The notes under the pieces are model-generated. The model saw only the letters and a program-made list of their open reading frames with translations. It had not been told where the DNA came from and did no database searches. Positions 26,115-45,262 of a stretch of 64,000 nucleotides of DNA are shown here, in pieces (positions within the stretch are counted from its first letter, which is position 1; every line of letters starts with the position of its first letter). The position numbers and the translations under genes are program-made. Source of the DNA: a virus (Duplodnaviria; Caudoviricetes); IMG/VR virus record IMGVR_UViG_3300049009_000811, positions 32,001-96,000 of that record; one strand, written 5' to 3'.

Positions 26115-26254
26115 ACACGATTGAGTTTTTCCAGGAACTGGCGTATGATGCGTTCACGGTGCCGCTGTTCTGGCTCCTGCGCAACTGGGCTACCGCCCTG
26201 CCGGCAGCCATGTTCGCCGGGACCGCGCTTGCGGTAGCGCTCCTGCTTTCCTGA
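26111..26254 (+). CDS. small membrane protein
   Basis: ATGA overlap; hydrophobic. Confidence 0.5.
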   Translation: MNTIEFFQELAYDAFTVPLFWLLRNWATALPAAMFAGTALAVALLLS

Positions 26255-26278
26255 AACCTTTCCCCGGAGGACGACCAG

Positions 26279-26641
26279 ATGTCGAAGATGAGCAACCTTC
26301 TCGAAGCCGCGGAGGCTGCCAGGGCGGCAGCCAAGGCTTCCGACGTGGCGCACGACGCCTACCTTTCCTACTCCAACGCGGTCTTAGCCTCGTACAGGTG
26401 CAACCTGAAGGTCGTCATCGCCTCGCTCAACTGCGAGACGGACCGCTCGGAGGAGAACCTCTCAGCCCTAGCCGAAGCCGAGTCGGAATCGTCCGAAGCG
26501 GACGCCGCGGCGAGCGGAGCAAGGTCTGGGGCGCTGGCTGCCGACCACTACGCCAAGGCTGCCGCGAGGAAGGCTTACGAGGCTAGCGTGAGGGACAAGG
26601 GGGCGAGGTTTCCCGGTCTCGGGCTGGGGCGAGGAAAATAG
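26279..26641 (+). CDS. Ala-rich hypothetical protein
   Basis: GGAGG RBS. Confidence 0.65.
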   Translation: MSKMSNLLEAAEAARAAAKASDVAHDAYLSYSNAVLASYRCNLKVVIASLNCETDRSEENLSALAEAESESSEADAAASGARSGALAADHYAKAAARKAYEASVRDKGARFPGLGLGRGK

Positions 26642-35139: not shown

Positions 35140-35871
35140 CTACAGCTTCGTGACGCCGTTCACGAGGAGTTTCCTCCTCTCCCTGTACCTGCCGATCTTT
35201 TCAGGGTTGACTTCCCTTCTGAAGTTCGACTTGCTGCTGTCGTCGAATTCGAAGCCGAAGTATTCGATGTCCTTCCTGTATATGCTTCCGACCATGTCCA
35301 CCATCTTGTCCGTGTAGTATGTCCTGTAGTCCTCGTGCTTGCTCCTGTTCGCGTGGGGTAGCTTTTTCCTGTTTCCCGTGATGTCGGACACGAGCTTGAA
35401 GTCCTCTTCGTAGGTGTGGATGCTGCAGAAGTAGTCGACCAGGATCTCCCCGTCGGCGCTCACCCAGTCCATGACCGGACTGAGGTAGAACCAATACCGG
35501 TTGTCTCCGTCGTGTTCCATGTGGATCTCGTCGTCGGTCTGAATGGCGATGTAGTCCTCCATGGTCATTTTCGATATGTGCTTTTCTTTTTTTCTTTTGC
35601 TTCTGCCGTTCATGGACACGCTTTGGTTATCGAGGAGGTACAAGTAGGCTGAAACCATCCTCTCCCAAGGGTTCCTCGTGTTGGCGAACACGAGGTAGTT
35701 TTCGAGGTTTATCTTCTTGTTGCGGTAGTGCTGCATCGAATAGTGGAGCGGCGACCATTCAGTGTTGCCGAATTCGTTGATGACGGAGCAATTGCCGAAA
35801 AGGTCTATTATCGACCACCCGCCGGTCTTCGGCGGGTGTATGAAAATTATTTTCTCCATCTCGTTTATCAT
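35140..35871 (-). CDS. sulfotransferase family 2
   Basis: FIHPPKTGG.S (5'-PSB), RNPWERMVSAY (3'-PB), Y..D...FGF. Confidence 0.85.
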   Translation of the reverse strand: MINEMEKIIFIHPPKTGGWSIIDLFGNCSVINEFGNTEWSPLHYSMQHYRNKKINLENYLVFANTRNPWERMVSAYLYLLDNQSVSMNGRSKRKKEKHISKMTMEDYIAIQTDDEIHMEHDGDNRYWFYLSPVMDWVSADGEILVDYFCSIHTYEEDFKLVSDITGNRKKLPHANRSKHEDYRTYYTDKMVDMVGSIYRKDIEYFGFEFDDSSKSNFRREVNPEKIGRYRERRKLLVNGVTKL

Positions 35872-35962
35872 ATGTTTATGTAGGCATCCTTGCCTGAAGA
35901 TCAATCCGTTGAATGTATATATCATCGAAGCCTAGCCTAGTCAAACAACTTTCGCAACAATC

Positions 35963-37138: not shown

Positions 37139-37750
37139 TCAGGAGTTTTTTTCCAGTTTGTATTCGACCGCCACGTTTACCGTCATCGTGGGGACTCCGA
37201 TGTCGGTGCATATGTTGACCTTTTTGGCTTGCGCAGCCGTGAGGAAAAGGTCGGCGTTGTTCTTGTCGTGTAGCATCTCGAGGAAGAAGCCGGGTTTCTT
37301 CCCGCAGTTCTTCGACATGATCTTGAATATGAGCTTGTTGAGCCTGTCCGTCTCCTTCACGTCAGCCTTTATATCCTCCGTCTTGCCAAACGACCTTGAC
37401 GACACCTCGTGTATCATGAGGGTCGCGTGCGGGGACATGTACCTCCTGTCGCCCATGGCGAACAGTATGGCTCCGCACGACATTGCTTTGCTCTCGACTA
37501 TTGTGTGGCACGGGAGCGGACATGTCTCTATCCTGCCGACCATCTCCAGCAGGCTGTAGACTTCGCCGCCGTACGAGTCTACGACTATGGGGATGAACGG
37601 CTGCCCGGAGTTGGAAGCCTTGTCCATCTGTTCCGAGAAGTCCTGGCACGACGTCCCGGAGAAGTTCTTGACCCTGATGACGACCGGCTGGTCCATCAGT
37701 TCCTCGAGCTTGCACTTGATGGCTTTGTCCACTTTTATCGTCTTGTGCAT
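37139..37750 (-). CDS. clpP: ClpP-family serine protease
   Basis: VDSYGGEV, KAMSCGA (catalytic Ser), LMIHE (His), DLFLTA..A. Confidence 0.88.
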   Translation of the reverse strand: MHKTIKVDKAIKCKLEELMDQPVVIRVKNFSGTSCQDFSEQMDKASNSGQPFIPIVVDSYGGEVYSLLEMVGRIETCPLPCHTIVESKAMSCGAILFAMGDRRYMSPHATLMIHEVSSRSFGKTEDIKADVKETDRLNKLIFKIMSKNCGKKPGFFLEMLHDKNNADLFLTAAQAKKVNICTDIGVPTMTVNVAVEYKLEKNS

Positions 37751-37751
37751 T

Positions 37752-38609
37752 TCACCTCGGTTTTTCCAGGTATGACTTCGCCACGTTCGACATCCTCATG
37801 AACGCCATTGTCGGCGAGTATTCGGACAGAACCTTGAACGGGTTCCCGAAGGAGAAGTATTCCGGCGGCTTGAATCCGAACATGTTCTTGCTGAATATAG
37901 GCATGTATCCGTTTCTGTAGCTTATAAAGCTTTTGGGATGGTTGCTGAAAAGGTCGCAGTCGAGCTCGTATGTCCCCAGCGCGTTGTACTTGCCGACATA
38001 CTTGTGCAGCTGCACGTTCATGGCTACGTTGACGCTTTCCGACCAAGGTTCCTTCCCGGACTTGATCTGGTTGAATATGTACTGCTCGCACAGGTTTATT
38101 GTCTCGTCGAAGAATTCGCTAGGGAAGCCGCCGAAGAACATGGTCCCGTAGGCGCTCGGCCATTTTTCCGAAGTCAATTCCTTTGGGTCGATGCCGAAGT
38201 GTTCCTTGAAGCCGGTCTTCCCGTCTATGAACTCGGGGGTGAAGTAAGGGTCGATCTGGAACCGGCAGAAAACCTGATCTTGGATGTCCTGGGGCTTGCT
38301 GAATATGATGGAGTCGAGGTCGAGCATGACGAACTGGTCGGATAGAGCCTTGTCCTTCATGGCGAAGCTGACCGCGTAAAGCTTGTTGAGCGTCTCGAAC
38401 CCCCTGACTTCGCCTATGTTCGTGTGCACGAACTTTCTGGCGTGGTTGTTGATGTTCGACGAGAATTCGGGCAGCAGTTTCGAGTCTTCCCTCGAGGCGA
38501 TGCATATCAGGAGCTTGTCCTCCAGCCCGATGGTCTTGAAGCTCTCTATCATAAGCTCAAGCTGCCACTGGTTTTGCGGGGTAAGCTCTGTGCTCACGAA
38601 AAAATCCAT
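37752..38609 (-). CDS. putative GT-A glycosyltransferase-like protein
   Basis: WQLEL..SF, NK and DLD (DxD) motifs; weak. Confidence 0.45.
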   Translation of the reverse strand: MDFFVSTELTPQNQWQLELMIESFKTIGLEDKLLICIASREDSKLLPEFSSNINNHARKFVHTNIGEVRGFETLNKLYAVSFAMKDKALSDQFVMLDLDSIIFSKPQDIQDQVFCRFQIDPYFTPEFIDGKTGFKEHFGIDPKELTSEKWPSAYGTMFFGGFPSEFFDETINLCEQYIFNQIKSGKEPWSESVNVAMNVQLHKYVGKYNALGTYELDCDLFSNHPKSFISYRNGYMPIFSKNMFGFKPPEYFSFGNPFKVLSEYSPTMAFMRMSNVAKSYLEKPR

Positions 38610-38678
38610 AAAATCTCCTTTGTTGTGTTTAAATTAGTGTGGAAAAGACTAAAATGTAATCAGAAAGGCGGTTTGAAC

Positions 38679-39266
38679 ATGAAAGCTTTGACATTAACAT
38701 TGGCGGTGGCGGTCGCGTCCATCCTCTACCTTGGGGTTTCTCCCAAGCTCGAGGCTGGCTGAAACGACGACAACGGTTTCGTTGTCGTTCCCCCGCCGGT
38801 CGGCGGATACGGCAATCTTGACGGCTTGGACACGAGAGACAGGCTTCGTCTGGAGGACGACTACAAGTACATGGTCTACCTCGCCAGGCAACTGGTCACG
38901 ATGGACCAGACCATGTTCGAGGCGGCGCTGAACAGGAGCGACAGGCGCGTCAAGTCAGCGGCTCTGGCTATAGCTCACAAGTACGAGGAGAAGTACCTCG
39001 AAGACCTTATCTCCAACATCGACTCGGACGAGCTTCTGGTCAGCCAGGCTGCCAGATACAGCCTAATACAGATAAGCAACCTTTACTTGGGAGGCAAGAA
39101 CTTCGTCGACTTCGGTCCCATGATCACGCACGACAGGGACACCAAGAGTTCCATAGCTTTCCTGTGGAAGGCTTGGTTCGGCAAGGCTGTGAAGGAAGGG
39201 AAAAAATGCAAGGGTTCACAGACGATCCAGAAGTCGACCGCGAAAACCCCGACGCAGAAGAAGTGA
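38679..39266 (+). CDS. secreted HEAT-like protein with in-frame TGA at codon 28 (recoded, or pseudogene)
   Basis: Signal peptide MKALTLTLAVAV..LEAG, then TGA (38760-38762), then the same frame stays open to 39266; hairpin at 38766-38789. Confidence 0.6.
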
Positions 39267-39472
39267 CATTGAAGTCGGATGAAATAGGAAGTGACGAGCG
39301 TGTGTGCTGCAACTGCAAGCATTTACTCTGGGGAATAGCTCTCGGGATCGGCTTGCGATGCACAGAACCGAAGAACCACGATAGGTCTTCGGGAAACATG
39401 CCACCGATGGTGCCAAGCAGGAGGCACACCTGTGCCGGATTCGAGTTTCGCCATCCGCCTAGCAAAGATTGA
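39263..39472 (+). CDS. small Cys-rich protein
   Basis: GTGA overlap; CCNCKH...C...C. Confidence 0.55.
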   Translation: MTLKSDEIGSDERVCCNCKHLLWGIALGIGLRCTEPKNHDRSSGNMPPMVPSRRHTCAGFEFRHPPSKD

Positions 39473-39802
39473 TCATCGGCTACTGGTCCCGTGCCATGAG
39501 TTGATCCTCTGACCTATCCACCTCATGACGTTGGTAGCCATCGAGTTGCCGATAGCCTTGTACCTCGGACTGTCTGGGCAGACCTCGGATGGCTTGCCCC
39601 TATAGGGTATCTGAGTCCAGTTGTCCGGGAATCCCTGCAGCCTCTCGCATTCCACTGCCGTAAGGTGTCTCACTTTACCGCCTGCGGCGATGTGCATCCT
39701 AGGCAGGGAATCCTTCCCTCCACTGGCACCGTGGTGCTTGTAGAAGCAAGAGGTTATGGTGTCGGAGATATTCTGGAATACCACCTGCTCGATTTCAATC
39801 AT
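39473..39802 (-). CDS. stand-alone C5-methyltransferase C-terminal module
   Basis: SDTITS...RHLTAVECERLQGFPDNWT...RYKAIGNSMA; ATGA coupling, AAGGA RBS. Confidence 0.75.
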   Translation of the reverse strand: MIEIEQVVFQNISDTITSCFYKHHGASGGKDSLPRMHIAAGGKVRHLTAVECERLQGFPDNWTQIPYRGKPSEVCPDSPRYKAIGNSMATNVMRWIGQRINSWHGTSSR

Positions 39803-40335
39803 AAATCCTTCTTTTCGCAAAAAGTTGGATTGCGTAGTTCCTGATCCTTCCTCAAGATCCTCTGACCTATCCACCGCATGACGTTGACAGCCATCGAGTT
39901 TCCCAGAGCCTTGTACCTCGGACCGTCGGGGCATTTGTCTTCCGGCTTGTTCCTGTACGGCACAAGAGTCCAGTTGTCCGGGAATCCCTGCAACCTCTCG
40001 CATTCGGTCGTGGTCATCCTCCTGATGTACATTTCGGTCACGGTCGATTCCAGTTTCACTGCGACCACGGACTGGTCGGCGTTGTGACCAGGGCTGTTCG
40101 TCTGACCGCCGCCACGGCTCGATCTTCCCATTAGCGTAGCCGAGACCTCTGGAGTGTAGACGAATTCCTGTTTCACCACCGCCACTCCAGGGATCACCGC
40201 GGTCCTGAGCGTGAATGCCGGTTCTCCCTCTTTTCCCCATCCGGCGGTCTGCTTCCTGGTCGGAGAAAGTGAGCAAAGGTCCATCGGGTCTTTCAGCGGA
40301 ACGCAGGAGACGCTGTCTTTCTTCTTGTCAATCAT
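39799..40335 (-). CDS. stand-alone C5-methyltransferase C-terminal module (two TRD-like units)
   Basis: AFTLRT, SATLMG, RRMTTTECERLQGFPD, RYKALGNS; ATGA coupling. Confidence 0.75.
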   Translation of the reverse strand: MIDKKKDSVSCVPLKDPMDLCSLSPTRKQTAGWGKEGEPAFTLRTAVIPGVAVVKQEFVYTPEVSATLMGRSSRGGGQTNSPGHNADQSVVAVKLESTVTEMYIRRMTTTECERLQGFPDNWTLVPYRNKPEDKCPDGPRYKALGNSMAVNVMRWIGQRILRKDQELRNPTFCEKKDL

Positions 40336-42290
40336 ATTTGACCGCCATCCTTCATCGCCACCCTCTGACCTATCCACCGCATGACGTTGGTAGCCATCGA
40401 GTTGCCTAAAGACTTGTACCTCGGACCGTCGGGGCATTTGTCCGCGTCCTTCTTCCTGTACGGTATCTTGGTCCACAAGTCCGGGAAGCCCTGCAGCCTC
40501 TCGCACTCTATCGGGGTCAACCTCCGCACCACCATGTGCTGGAACACCATCCCGACATGGTCGCCGTCCGACCTGCTGGCGCGTATCGTCTGCGAGGTGT
40601 CGCTTACCGTCTGGCTGTAGCCGTCGAAAGCGAGAACGTCTTGCTCCTGCTCGAGCAACACCATTCCCATCTTGTCGCAGTCCGACCCGGTACGGATCGT
40701 CTGGGAGGTCGTGGACAGAGTCTGATTGTATCCGTCGAACGCCATGGCTTCTTGCTTCTGCTCGAGAATGTAGTTGGTCTGCTTAGCCCCGGACTCCGCA
40801 GCCAGAGCCCCGGCTATCTGCCCGTCGCCTGATATGAACCTCACCTCGTCACGGGTGTTCTGCTGGAACGCGGATTTGATGACATGGCTTGGTCTGCTGG
40901 GTCGGTTCTCTCCCTCGGCTCGAAGCGTTCCGGAGACCTCGTCCTTCACCCAGTAACCGTGACCAGATTCCCGCATGCACTCCGACTCTACCACGTAAGC
41001 CTGCGCGCACGGAGCCCCGCTCAGTTCGGGAGTGGAAACCTGGATCGCTTCGGCGCTTGTCGTGGCTATGATGTGTCCGTTCATGATCGACTGGTGGGTC
41101 AGCTTGCCCCCGCCGCACTGCGTGTCCAGGCACCCGGCTGTCTCCGGGATCTGGTGCTTGACGAAAAGGCTACCGTTGTCGGCGCTGGCGTTTCCGTTCC
41201 ATTTCGTGCCGTACGCTGCGGTGAGGCAGTCAGCCGTCTCCCTGAAAGGTACTGGCTTGCCTTGGCTGTTGGAATCCGCTATCGCCGGCGGGTGAGCCCC
41301 CGAAGCGAGAGGGTGGCAAGGGTCGCCCGGCTTAGGGTTGCTGTAGTTGGACGCGCTGGTTATCTGCGTGGTGTCGAACGGCAGGACGCCGTTCTCATCC
41401 TTGCTGGTCGACGAGTAGTCCTGGACCGACCTCTTCGGCGGCGAGTCTAATCTTTTTTTTTGAGGCACAGCCTGTATGTAGCCGGCGTCCACGCCCTGGT
41501 TGCAAGCGAAATTGCCGGCGTCATGTCCGTTCGGACCGGTGTTGCATGCCAGAGTACCGACCGTCTCGGACCTGCTCGGCGGGGAATCTATTCTGGGTCT
41601 TTCGTCTCTGGATCTTTCGTCGAGACTTCCCGAAGAGCCGACTCCAGAGTCGGAGGGAGCTTCTTGCCCCTGCGCTCCGCCCTCGACAGTATCCCCCTGC
41701 ACGCTCGCCCACTCAAAAAGAATCTCTGCGGGATCTGCCCCGTCTCTAGGACAGCTGACAACGAACACACGCTTGCGCCGTTGTGCCAGGTTGAAATATT
41801 GGGCATCGAGGCATCGCCACGCGATTGCTCTTTTGGGTCCATACACACAACCAGAGTCCTTCCATTTTCCCCCTGGCGGTCGAATTTCACAATCTTCGCC
41901 GGCAAGCGCTCCCAGAAAGCATCCGAATGCGTTGTCCTTTGAGCTGAGTACCCCTGGCACGTTTTCCCAGATGATGTACTTTGGGTTGAACTTGTCTGCG
42001 ATCTGCACGAAGGTGATTGAGAGGCTTCCTCGTGCGTCCTCGAGTCCGCGCCGCAGTCCTGCGACTGAGAAGGCTTGGCATGGAGTTCCTCCGACGAGGA
42101 TGTCGACGTCTCCGATATTCCAGTTTCTGTATTCATTCATGTCTCCTAGGTTTGGAACGTTTGGGAATCTGTGGGCTAGAACCGCGGCGGGGAAGGCGTC
42201 TATCTCGGAGAAAGCAACTGGCTCCCAACCGAAATCGTGCCAGGCTACGCTGGCTGCCTCTATGCCCGAACAAACTGACAAATACTTCAT
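40332..42290 (-). CDS. DNA (cytosine-5) methyltransferase with about 8 tandem TRD-like units
   Basis: SVCSGIEA (I), GGTPCQ (IV), WENVPG (VI), QRRKRVF (VIII), ERLQGFP (IX), GNS (X). Confidence 0.92.
   Translation of the reverse strand: MKYLSVCSGIEAASVAWHDFGWEPVAFSEIDAFPAAVLAHRFPNVPNLGDMNEYRNWNIGDVDILVGGTPCQAFSVAGLRRGLEDARGSLSITFVQIADKFNPKYIIWENVPGVLSSKDNAFGCFLGALAGEDCEIRPPGGKWKDSGCVYGPKRAIAWRCLDAQYFNLAQRRKRVFVVSCPRDGADPAEILFEWASVQGDTVEGGAQGQEAPSDSGVGSSGSLDERSRDERPRIDSPPSRSETVGTLACNTGPNGHDAGNFACNQGVDAGYIQAVPQKKRLDSPPKRSVQDYSSTSKDENGVLPFDTTQITSASNYSNPKPGDPCHPLASGAHPPAIADSNSQGKPVPFRETADCLTAAYGTKWNGNASADNGSLFVKHQIPETAGCLDTQCGGGKLTHQSIMNGHIIATTSAEAIQVSTPELSGAPCAQAYVVESECMRESGHGYWVKDEVSGTLRAEGENRPSRPSHVIKSAFQQNTRDEVRFISGDGQIAGALAAESGAKQTNYILEQKQEAMAFDGYNQTLSTTSQTIRTGSDCDKMGMVLLEQEQDVLAFDGYSQTVSDTSQTIRASRSDGDHVGMVFQHMVVRRLTPIECERLQGFPDLWTKIPYRKKDADKCPDGPRYKSLGNSMATNVMRWIGQRVAMKDGGQI
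41588..42136 (-). CDS. nested alternative-frame ORF inside the C5-MTase (beta-subunit-like); true start uncertain
   Basis: CSLSAVLE...FFLSGRACRGILSRAERRGKKLP..LESAL; counterpart in the paralog at 43014. Confidence 0.55.
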   Translation of the reverse strand: MNTETGISETSTSSSEELHAKPSQSQDCGADSRTHEEASQSPSCRSQTSSTQSTSSGKTCQGYSAQRTTHSDAFWERLPAKIVKFDRQGENGRTLVVCMDPKEQSRGDASMPNISTWHNGASVCSLSAVLETGQIPQRFFLSGRACRGILSRAERRGKKLPPTLESALREVSTKDPETKDPE

Positions 42291-42303: not shown

Positions 42304-43641
42304 TTATTTTTCCGACTCGACCCGCTCGCCTATCCAGCGCATCACGTTTACGCACATGGAGTTGCCGATAGCCTTGTACCTCGGACCGTCTGGGCATGCC
42401 TCGGCTGGCTTGCCCCTGTATGGTATCTGAGTCCAGTTGTCCGGGAATCCCTGCAGCCTCTCGCACTCTATGGGAGTGAGCTTCCTCACGATCATGGAGT
42501 GGTGGAGAGACATCTGGTTGTCGCCGGGTTCCTTCCTCAGCGTGCCGCATATGTCCTCCCAGTAGTAGCCACCCATCCTGGACATTGCTCCCGGCTCGAA
42601 GGTCGCCGGATGCATCACGAGGCTTCCGCCCTGGTTCTTGCTCGGGTCCGGCACCGAAGTGTCAAGGGTCTTTATCGTTTCCACTTCCCTGCAGCCGCTG
42701 TGCGGGTTGCTTGATTTCATCGAGTTGCTCGATTTTGAGTCGAACGAGTACACGACCGCGGGCTGCGCGACCCCGTGCACGCAGGCTGAGGTTATGGTGT
42801 TGGATGGGTCGCCCTCGGAGCCTACGCCGAGACCCTGCCTGTTCATCGCGTCCATCTTTTTCGGGTCTCGGCAGGCGTTGCGGAGGTCGAGGGGTATGGC
42901 TTGGACAGCCACGTGCCTCTGCTTGCTGCCCTGGAGGGCATCAAGCGTGTTCGTGACATCGGTCTCGACATAGCAGCCGCCGGTGTCGCCGAAATTCTGG
43001 GGCTTGTACAGGGTCACTCCGTCTTGTTCGCAACCGCCTCCAGAGCGTTCTTGAGCTTCTCTGGAAGCTGCTTTTTTCTTTCCTCTGCTCTTCGCAGTAT
43101 CCCTAGACACGCTTTCTGACTTAAAAAGTACTTTTGCTGCACGTTCCTGGTCTCCAAGACACCCAACAACGAACACCCTTCGTCTCCGTTGCGGAACTCC
43201 GAACCCCGAAGCGTCCAGGACCCTATATGCCCACCCGTACCCCAGTTCCCCCAGCCCCCCGAGGAAGGTTCCAAAATCCCTTCCTCCGTGGCTTGAAAGC
43301 ACCCCGGGGACATTTTCCCAGACAATCCATCTAGGTTTTCTACTTCTAGCGATCTCAAGAAATCTGAGCATGAGACCGCCCCTTGGGTCGCTGAGCCCTT
43401 TTCGCAGTCCCGCGACTGAGAAGCTCTGGCATGGGGTTCCTCCGACGAGCAGGTCGATTGGATCGATGTCCCATCGTTCATGTTCATTCATGTCTCCTAG
43501 GTTTGGTACGTTCGGGAATCTTGTCTTGAGAATCTCGCAAGGGAATTTCTCTATCTCTGAGAAGGCTACTGCTTCCCAGCCCATGTGGTGCCAAGCCGAG
43601 GTCGCGGCTTCTATGCCGGAACAGACCGATAGGTATTTCAT
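42304..43641 (-). CDS. DNA (cytosine-5) methyltransferase with about 4 TRD-like units
   Basis: All C5-MTase motifs, as above. Confidence 0.92.
   Translation of the reverse strand: MKYLSVCSGIEAATSAWHHMGWEAVAFSEIEKFPCEILKTRFPNVPNLGDMNEHERWDIDPIDLLVGGTPCQSFSVAGLRKGLSDPRGGLMLRFLEIARSRKPRWIVWENVPGVLSSHGGRDFGTFLGGLGELGYGWAYRVLDASGFGVPQRRRRVFVVGCLGDQERAAKVLFKSESVSRDTAKSRGKKKAASREAQERSGGGCEQDGVTLYKPQNFGDTGGCYVETDVTNTLDALQGSKQRHVAVQAIPLDLRNACRDPKKMDAMNRQGLGVGSEGDPSNTITSACVHGVAQPAVVYSFDSKSSNSMKSSNPHSGCREVETIKTLDTSVPDPSKNQGGSLVMHPATFEPGAMSRMGGYYWEDICGTLRKEPGDNQMSLHHSMIVRKLTPIECERLQGFPDNWTQIPYRGKPAEACPDGPRYKAIGNSMCVNVMRWIGERVESEK
43014..43487 (-). CDS. nested alternative-frame ORF inside the C5-MTase (beta-subunit-like); true start uncertain
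   Basis: CSLLGVLE...KYFLSQKACLGILRRAEERKKQLPEKLKNAL. Confidence 0.55.
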   Translation of the reverse strand: MNMNDGTSIQSTCSSEEPHARASQSRDCEKGSATQGAVSCSDFLRSLEVENLDGLSGKMSPGCFQATEEGILEPSSGGWGNWGTGGHIGSWTLRGSEFRNGDEGCSLLGVLETRNVQQKYFLSQKACLGILRRAEERKKQLPEKLKNALEAVANKTE

Positions 43642-43728: not shown

Positions 43729-45195
43729 TCAGGAACCAATGTTGTCCAGGAACCTTTTTGTGGACAAAAGCCTTCTGGTCCGCTCGAAATCATCGCCTTT
43801 GGGGCTGTGACCGAGCATGTTGACATACGCGGGGTTGACCTTCTTGCCGAAGACGGTGTCGACGTAGGGGCTCAAATCGGAGTCGTCATGGCTGAGGAAC
43901 GAGCCCATCTGCGGACCGTCGAACCTGCCCATCTTCATCCAGTCCTTGATCTTGCCCTTCGTGAGTCCCGTCTTGGCGCTCTTGAGGTCATAGAACATGG
44001 ACGGGTCGAAGTTGCTTTTGGACCACTTGTAGAGGCTCACGAGGTGGGCTATGTCGCCAGCCTCCTGCTTCGACCATCCGTTGCCGACAAGCATGTCCTT
44101 GAGCTCCTCGGAATCCTTGTCCTTGGTCAGCCAAGCCGTGGTCAGCCACCTGTCGCCCTTCATGTTGGTCGGCAGATCTTCCAGAGAGTAGTCCGGCATG
44201 ATGTTGCGGAGCAGACCGAGGCTGTCCATGAGCCTAAGGTATTTCCTGGAATCTATGTCCGGGTCTTCGATGCTCCCGAAGAACTCCTTCTTGGCGTAGT
44301 CCTTGGAAAGGTCTCCAATCCTCTCGTTCCCCTTTATGGCGCTGGCGTATTTCTTGGCGACGTCGTCGGGATTGCCGTATTTCGAAAGCATCCTAGCGTA
44401 CCGCATGGCGGTGCCCGGGTCTTCCTCTATCCTCGACTTGAAGTCGTCGTTGACGCTTACTATCTGGCTGTTCTTGAGGTGGTGCGCGCCGCCGTACGGG
44501 TCTATTAGGTCGGAGTTGTCGCCGTCGCTGTTGGTCAGCGGTATGTACATGGAGTTTATGGTGAAGTCCCTGTTGCTCGCGTCGTCCTCGAGTGATCCGG
44601 TAGCCTCGAAGGAATCGAGGTCGACCAGCTTGCTCTTGGATGACTTGGACATCGTGGAAAGCTCGAACTTCTCCCCGTTTATGACGATCGTGAATTCCGA
44701 CTCCTTTCCGCCCTTGTCCCACCTGGAGGCGTAGAAGTACTTGTTCCTGTTGCTTTCCTTGAGGAGTTTCGCGTATTTCTCGGACGAAGCCTTGCTTTCG
44801 TTCTTCGGCTTTATCTCGACGAACGAGTTTTCCGGGTGGCTCAGGATCATCCTTATCTCGCTGGCGGTGGCGTCGGTGACGAGGTTGTAGTTCTTCTGCG
44901 TCTTGTTCTTGAGGTGGTCCCTGACCGAGCCTCCGGACAGGTAAAGCGACTTCCTCTTGAGGGTCGGCTCAACCTCGCCCTTGCTTTTCTCTATGGTCGT
45001 GTACCCTATGCCCGTTTTGTCGCTGTTGTCGAAAGACTTCATGAGGATGCGGAGGTTAGCCCTGTTGCCCTTGGAGACGTTGAACGGCATGTAGTCGCTG
45101 TCCTTGCTCAGCCTGACCTTGGACATGACCGTGTTGTTCGGCTTTGTCTCGTTTTGTTCCCTGAATGCCATGAAACGTGAAAATTTGTTTTTCAT
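43729..45195 (-). CDS. CCA-adding enzyme / poly(A) polymerase homolog with degenerate active site
   Basis: GGSVRD...NYN (expected DxD), NRDFTINSM, DPYGG..L, EDPGT (expected EDxxR). Confidence 0.8.
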   Translation of the reverse strand: MKNKFSRFMAFREQNETKPNNTVMSKVRLSKDSDYMPFNVSKGNRANLRILMKSFDNSDKTGIGYTTIEKSKGEVEPTLKRKSLYLSGGSVRDHLKNKTQKNYNLVTDATASEIRMILSHPENSFVEIKPKNESKASSEKYAKLLKESNRNKYFYASRWDKGGKESEFTIVINGEKFELSTMSKSSKSKLVDLDSFEATGSLEDDASNRDFTINSMYIPLTNSDGDNSDLIDPYGGAHHLKNSQIVSVNDDFKSRIEEDPGTAMRYARMLSKYGNPDDVAKKYASAIKGNERIGDLSKDYAKKEFFGSIEDPDIDSRKYLRLMDSLGLLRNIMPDYSLEDLPTNMKGDRWLTTAWLTKDKDSEELKDMLVGNGWSKQEAGDIAHLVSLYKWSKSNFDPSMFYDLKSAKTGLTKGKIKDWMKMGRFDGPQMGSFLSHDDSDLSPYVDTVFGKKVNPAYVNMLGHSPKGDDFERTRRLLSTKRFLDNIGS

Positions 45196-45262
45196 TTGAT
45201 TCCCCAAAAGTAAAAATACAAGATTATTTATCTTCCCTGACTCGATTTTTGAAACAAGAATG

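Follow-up and report, generated by a model that had tools for sequence, protein, structure and literature searches.

A candidate selenocysteine codon conserved directly after the signal-peptide-like N-terminus of a HEAT-like phage protein family

A gene of a large uncultured freshwater phage raises the question of how a protein is made from a reading frame that meets UGA immediately after an apparent signal peptide, and which residue would be inserted there. The window, i.e., the whole stretch of DNA analyzed, is 64,000 nt long and corresponds to bases 32001-96000 of a 115,719-bp IMG/VR virus record. CheckV estimated this record as 24% complete and the whole genome at about 480 kb; the record thus represents a fragment of a very large phage. 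An earlier inspection of the letters alone (the sequence-only reading) had described a ribosome binding site (RBS), then signal-peptide-like codons, a TGA, and 167 further open codons, all of which were borne out (Table 1). The 27 N-terminal codons specify Lys at position 2, an 18-residue hydrophobic core, and a short polar stretch ending in Ala-Gly, and the 167 open codons run from the TGA at 38760-38762 to the terminating TGA at 39264-39266.

Table 1. Positions of the candidate gene, its RNA elements, and neighboring features in the window
Feature	Position	Strand	Remarks
Sigma-70-like promoter match	38628..38655	+	Divergent intergenic region; 9/12 hexamer matches, consensus match only
RBS-like AGAAAGG	38662..38668	+	10 nt upstream of ATG; identical heptamer before ATG in clade B
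Whole gene, putatively recoded	38679..39266	+	195 codons including one in-frame UGA, plus stop; homologs in 8 lineages alike
Signal-peptide-like N-terminus	38679..38759	+	27 codons; ends at predicted signal-peptidase site (Ala -1), then Gly
In-frame UGA, candidate selenocysteine codon	38760..38762	+	Residue 28 = position 2 of predicted mature protein
Hairpin 1	38766..38789	+	10 bp (38766-38775/38780-38789), loop GUUU, -13.5 kcal/mol
Hairpin 2, best SECIS candidate	38793..38806	+	5 G-C pairs, loop GGUC, 35 nt after UGA, -8.3 kcal/mol
Helical-repeat (HEAT-like) domain	38826..39203	+	Residues ~50-175; AlphaFold2, Foldseek, and Pfam on homologs
Terminating TGA	39264..39266	+	Equivalent place is TAA in relatives outside clade A
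Neighbor gene, Sulfotransfer_2	35140-35925	-	
Neighbor gene, Clp protease	37139-37750	-	
Neighbor gene, PolyA_pol head domain	43729-45207	-	tRNA nucleotidyltransferase family

The TGA is neither an error nor a sign of a different genetic code. The same TGA occurs in near-identical phages that were assembled independently (L003, obtained from a Logan run, and L004/L006, obtained from JGI samples), which disposes of the read error raised as an alternative in the sequence-only reading; these assemblies, together with the sharing of the TGA by eight lineages, rule out a sequencing error or a fresh nonsense mutation. Elsewhere TGA behaves as an ordinary stop, as had been claimed, since it terminates 33 of the 89 long ORFs of the 115,719-bp record, often abutting the next gene, and one ORF of 3917 codons is devoid of in-frame TGA. 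Genome-wide reassignment of TGA (code 4 or 25) is ruled out by these observations and by the use of TGG for Trp. In lineage F, the Trp two codons upstream of the TGA is encoded by TGG, as are the other three Trp positions of lineage E, and TGA is thus no synonym for Trp there.

A targeted scan of the record for a second combination of signal peptide, TGA, and long open frame gave no convincing case. At 26160-26641 (+ strand), a 31-codon hydrophobic ORF ending at TGA 26252 is in frame with a 120-codon ORF (26279-26641). The two are probably separate genes, since the latter has its own ATG start nine codons after the TGA.

Relatives were identified by protein and profile searches followed by DNA retrieval, yielding 13 distinct sequences in eight lineages: A (the window, L003, and L004), B (L001, L005, L008, and L009), C (L011), C2 (L024), D (L016), E (L022), E2 (L035), and F (L034). 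Their proteins are 26-98% identical to that of the window, and the GC content of the loci ranges from 29 to 55%. In each of the 13, a hydrophobic N-terminus is immediately followed by a single in-frame TGA. This codon lies exactly one residue past an Ala of the signal-peptidase type in seven of the eight lineages, and the preceding codon is Gly in seven lineages and Glu in lineage E.

No close homolog (E < 1e-30) with a sense codon at the UGA site was found in the libraries searched. A scan of genome collections for close relatives gave none, as did a viral-contig scan with the E/F alignment. Trp homologs, which the sequence-only reading had named among its refuting cases, were represented by only two database proteins with a "W" at the site, P0006 (L011-L015) and P0014 (L022). 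In both, the actual codon is TGA; the "W" arose as the short contigs were gene-called with code 4, and both were discarded as artefacts. Public gene callers mishandled the gene in all relatives found, either by calling only the stretch downstream of the TGA or by applying code 4, which implies that viromes systematically miss such genes.

The pattern of nucleotide change indicates that the UGA is translated through in frame, as there is no conserved later start and change in that frame is mostly synonymous. In the stretch that separates the TGA from the first ATG shared downstream, 10 of 13 variable sites leave the residue encoded in this frame unchanged (6/7 in clade A and 4/6 in clade B). 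Within the signal-peptide part, all four variable sites of clade A are synonymous, as are 3 of 13 changes in clade B, where the altered residues stay hydrophobic. No start codon is conserved after the TGA: an alternative TTG at 38826 is CTA in L003 and CTG in L004 (relatives with 96-98% identity), with Leu retained; the TTG found two codons past the UGA in L001 is TTA in L005, L008, and L009; and the first ATG shared within clade A is 37 codons past the UGA and has no RBS.

The identity of the residue is addressed by more distant homologs. Sequences were aligned with MAFFT with X placed at the UGA to avoid biasing the aligner, and the column holding the X of clades A-D contains Cys in 13 homologs that lack the TGA, a pairing that rests on protein architecture plus alignment as the N-terminal region is short and variable. 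The check proposed in the sequence-only reading, namely whether homologs keep TGA or Cys at this codon, thus gave TGA in 13/13 DNA sequences and Cys in the more distant homologs. Distant family members without the TGA (E = 1e-15 to 1e-3) have one or two Cys just past the signal peptide. Seven of the 13 Cys homologs are of a Planctomycetota type with the layout signal peptide-Ala-Gln-Cys, a group that a genome scan showed to comprise Gemmataceae and other Planctomycetota MAGs. In Gemmataceae the Cys codon at the aligned site is TGC, which differs from TGA by a single base. Where several phage-like homologs have Cys-x4-Cys, the arrangement is Cys-x4-UGA in lineage D and UGA-x4-Cys in lineage E.

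Given the arrangement Ala-Gly-UGA followed by a Pro-rich linker, a lipoprotein lipobox with Cys at +1 ([LVI][ASTVI][GAS]-Cys) was also considered. It was rejected: clades A-D have Glu, Tyr, or Gln at position -3, and at position -1 lineage E has Glu and the seven Planctomycetota-type sequences all have Gln.

If the UGA encodes selenocysteine (Sec), a bacterial SECIS element (bSECIS) is expected downstream, for which the published model gives a 4-16 bp stem, a UGA-loop spacing of 16-37 nt, an apical loop measuring 3-9 nt, with G in its first two positions and, as a rule, G or U next, and a minimum free energy of at most -7.5 kcal/mol (PMC13188914). The sequence-only reading had pointed to a 9-10 bp stem with a GTTT loop just past the TGA, without a U-tract and with the loop somewhat close to the UGA at 13 nt, as SECIS-like. 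The structure, our hairpin 1, is as described, with a 10-bp stem starting 3 nt past the UGA and a GUUU loop whose distance falls outside the 16-37 nt of the model. Hairpin 1 is probably not the SECIS, since in addition to the 13-nt spacing the hairpin is absent in clade B and weakened in L003. In L003, which is 96% identical, the stem has a C.A mismatch and the loop is GCUU, so that the GU is lost. In the window, 198 of 200 shuffles fold less well than the 51 nt from the UGA onward (z = -2.6), and clade B folds no better than shuffles.

Hairpin 1 encodes a peptide island kept in clades A, C, and D. Its region (38763-38789) is a codon-level palindrome in which Asp/Asn codons pair with Val codons after a Gly-Phe turn, whereas the pairing partners of these Gly-Phe codons in clades C and D are Arg-Asn-Leu codons located downstream. 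Judged by these predicted pairings, hairpin 1 appears to be rebuilt with a different partner in different lineages, and it may serve as a spacer or pause site. A role as an intrinsic terminator was rejected, as no U-tract follows hairpin 1 and a scan gave no terminator-like site.

Hairpin 2 is the better candidate. In the window it fits the strict contiguous-stem version of the bSECIS model, as do 67 of the 3570 TGA triplets of the record (1.9%) and 0.4% of those in the pooled low-GC loci. The strict model is also passed in lineage D (11 bp, loop AGU, spacing 23 nt, -9.5 kcal/mol) and lineage F (7 bp, loop GGUCA, spacing 21 nt, -13.0 kcal/mol); the stem is too weak in lineages B, E, and E2, and the spacing is too long, at 53 nt, in C and C2. 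Under relaxed limits, which were chosen post hoc with the data already seen and have backgrounds of 17.5% and 3.5%, a hairpin whose apical loop contains GU is present 21-53 nt past the UGA in all eight lineages. This loop GU arises in three codon phases, namely from a Val codon (A-D), a Gln-Phe junction (E and E2), and a Gly codon (F).

Within clades A-D, hairpin 2 is homologous, the G-U of the loop is kept, and the closing C-G pair is invariant. A covariation test on seven related sequences found both sides changed in 4/7 pairs, with a score reached by 0/500 shuffles. The signal disappeared when the partner was slid by 1-2 columns, and a +3 slide kept about two-thirds of it (0.211 vs 0.313). 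In C2 and D, C-G to U-A and G-C to A-U compensations occur through paired Pro-to-Ser and Gly-to-Asp replacements, which suggests that the RNA, and not the peptide, is under selection here. The middle pair is mismatched in clade B, in two different ways, and the spacing between UGA and hairpin varies by lineage. An Rfam scan of 38600-39000 gave no match at E up to 10.

We put the probability at roughly 0.6 that the gene represents a new phage family of secreted HEAT-like selenoproteins whose UGA is read as Sec through the host system. The UGA at codon 28 would be decoded by the host SelB/Sec-tRNA system, recruited by the in-ORF SECIS-type hairpin at 38793-38806 with its G-C stem and GGUC loop. 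When Sec insertion fails, the ribosome would stop at the UGA, with the 27-residue signal peptide as the sole product. Cleavage by signal peptidase would leave Sec as the second residue of the mature protein, corresponding to Cys in cellular and other phage homologs. Sec as the inserted residue, binding of SelB by hairpin 2, and the N-terminal cleavage are what we infer from sequence comparison. The proposal of the sequence-only reading, Sec or read-through at about position 2 of a mature exported phage protein, is thereby supported by the TGA in 13/13 sequences and the Cys column. It is likewise more likely than not that these phages, whose lineages span 29-55% GC, hijack host SelA/B/C/D through a coding-region SECIS that evolved together with the protein.

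Selenium machinery was sought in the phage and in possible hosts. The 115-kb record, which covers ~24% of the genome, gave no match to SelA, an EF-Tu-like GTPase, an AIRS_C (SelD-type) domain, or tRNA-Sec. The only tRNAs of the record are those for Met and Glu, and in the related records G001 and G006 a tRNA search gave tRNA-Thr only. SelA (E ~1e-145) is present in three of the four Planctomycetota genomes that carry Cys homologs. The Planctomycetota-type lineage, from which the family may derive, appears to use Sec, which does not imply that the phage infects this lineage. With phage loci spanning 29-55% GC, all hosts would have to be Sec users, which counts against Sec.

The main rival to Sec is programmed read-through independent of SelB, in which a leaky UGA is read infrequently by a near-cognate tRNA, usually that for Trp, or by a phage suppressor tRNA; this would throttle or time production of the exported protein, with the downstream hairpins slowing termination or stimulating read-through. 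We regard it as doubtful yet serious, since the evidence that the UGA is crossed does not fix the identity of the residue and 5/8 lineages fail the strict SECIS model. Gly before UGA and C after it are weak termination contexts in E. coli, and Gly precedes the UGA in 7/8 lineages and C follows it in clades B and D. However, the base following the UGA differs between lineages (A, C, or G), and lineage E has Glu before the UGA, so that no leaky context seems to be conserved. A suppressor tRNA may be encoded elsewhere, as the record covers only about a quarter of the phage genome, and stop-recoding phages with suppressor tRNAs are known (bioRxiv 10.1101/2021.08.26.457843). Such phages have many in-frame stops in late genes, whereas only one was found here and none in the 3917-codon ORF. 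Furthermore, the UGA is fixed at a position that is Cys in 13 homologs, a match that a purely regulatory stop does not need.

Two readings dispense with decoding of the UGA altogether. The locus could contain two cistrons, with a 27-residue hydrophobic peptide ending at the UGA and the helical domain starting internally, as public gene callers imply when they annotate the downstream part alone (125-155 residues) and as an ATG 14 codons past the UGA in clade B would allow. This is improbable, as neither an RBS nor a start is conserved downstream (the first ATG shared in clade A comes 37 codons on), the intervening stretch evolves as coding sequence in the same frame (6/7 variable sites synonymous in clade A), and the in-frame layout is retained in 13/13 sequences despite many linker indels. 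The other reading is bypassing of the type known from T4 gene 60, whose elements are a stop preceded by a Gly codon and immediately followed by a hairpin, and, farther on, a Gly codon that matches the first (PMC7026636). The window has all of these, with the matching codon 40 nt downstream, and peptidyl-tRNA-Gly could leave GGC, skip hairpin 1, and land on GGC at 38802-38804. We consider this hardly credible and rejected it: the supposed gap encodes the peptide island kept through different codons in A, C, and D with mostly synonymous change, lineage E has GAA at the take-off site and no matching landing codon nearby, and the landing codon in C2 is a non-matching GGA.

The Sec reading invokes a known mechanism in a new setting. 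Bacterial SECIS elements lie within the ORF and are bound by SelB, the archetype being E. coli fdhF (model, PMC13188914; mechanism, PMC7026636). As in bacterial selenoprotein genes, the UGA is conserved among orthologs, other homologs have Cys, and the coding sequence contains a hairpin with G followed by G or U in the loop; as in bSECIS elements, hairpin 2 of the window is within 16-37 nt of the UGA and below -7.5 kcal/mol. GGUC is also the apical loop of fdhF. Unlike in bacterial selenoprotein genes, the candidate is phage-encoded and Sec would occupy mature residue 2 in a disordered linker instead of an enzyme active site, and unlike in the bSECIS model, the hairpin is weaker or farther away in several lineages, and in clades A, C, and D another hairpin lies between it and the UGA. 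The mechanism would be the ordinary bacterial one (PMC7026636), and the phage carrier, the protein family, and the position of Sec would be new. Small secreted HEAT-like repeat proteins are absent from the selenoprotein lists checked.

Comparison with viral recoding gives partial parallels. In RNA phage Qbeta, a leaky UGA read as Trp by near-cognate decoding extends the coat protein to the minor protein A1. The present gene resembles it in having a conserved in-frame UGA in a phage gene, with the short product as default and the full-length product requiring read-through; whereas the short product of Qbeta is the functional coat protein, here it is only a signal peptide, and the site is aligned with Cys and followed by a co-evolving GU-loop hairpin. 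Stop-recoded phages read TAG as Gln or TGA as Trp by means of phage suppressor tRNAs (bioRxiv 10.1101/2021.08.26.457843, PMC9523058). Their genes, like this one, are unreadable under the standard code, but they have many recoded stops in late genes, and here a single codon at a fixed position is concerned while TGA otherwise terminates. Among viruses of eukaryotes, molluscum contagiosum and fowlpox viruses encode selenoproteins that are glutathione peroxidase homologs. These viruses likewise borrow the host machinery for Sec insertion into a protein of their own, although with a SECIS in the 3'-UTR and a captured cellular enzyme, as opposed to a bacterial in-ORF SECIS and a non-enzymatic repeat protein.

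Sec insertion is regarded as a cellular trait. Our literature searches found no phage-encoded selenoprotein, and the words phage and virus do not occur in a 2026 review of the prokaryotic selenoproteome (PMC13188914). If the Sec reading is correct, phages would depend on the selenium metabolism of their hosts for an exported protein, and a non-enzymatic family with an N-terminal Sec would be added to the known selenoproteins. As only a Sec-using host could support it, the gene would also mark host range.

The protein was modeled with AlphaFold2 on a 26-sequence alignment, giving a mean pLDDT of 83 and values > 90 in the core. The model comprises a helix at residues 2-17 (signal peptide), a low-confidence linker at 24-50 which contains the UGA, and an all-helical repeat core at 50-175. 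Foldseek gave weak matches only, to designed alphaRep/HEAT-like repeat proteins (best E = 0.24). A Pfam search with the window protein gave no match, and longer homologs matched HEAT_2 above the cut-off. The product would be an exported binding module on a flexible linker. As a guess, it may act in the periplasm or at the surface, with the N-terminal Sec/Cys making a redox or metal contact; a selenylsulfide/disulfide link or a metal contact could be formed.

Upstream of the gene, an AT-rich motif, TTTAAATTAGTG, and the AGAAAGG RBS are kept in divergent intergenic regions of both the window (38610-38678) and L001 (2853-2922). The motif is similar to the promoter-like match and also occurs upstream of the gene in clade B loci; motif and RBS are thus common to clades A and B despite only ~50% protein identity. 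The AT-rich motif may be a phage promoter common to both divergent genes.

A ClpP-like gene and an adjoining conserved gene of 283-285 residues on the opposite strand are syntenic with the candidate in clades A, B, and D, and a PolyA_pol-family gene lies nearby in clades A and D. Downstream, an 88-codon ORF in another frame (39206-39472, + strand) starts 61 nt before the end of the candidate gene and is also called in L003. In clade B, the downstream neighbor is instead a protein of 137-139 residues with a match to the RNA polymerase alpha C-terminal domain. On the minus strand, the region 39473-42290 encodes a C5 DNA methylase of 652 residues followed by two shorter ORFs (39799-40506 and 39473-40276). 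Each of these three ORFs ends with a conserved C-terminal methylase module, which is thus present in three tandem copies, and a second full methylase is located at 42304-43641.
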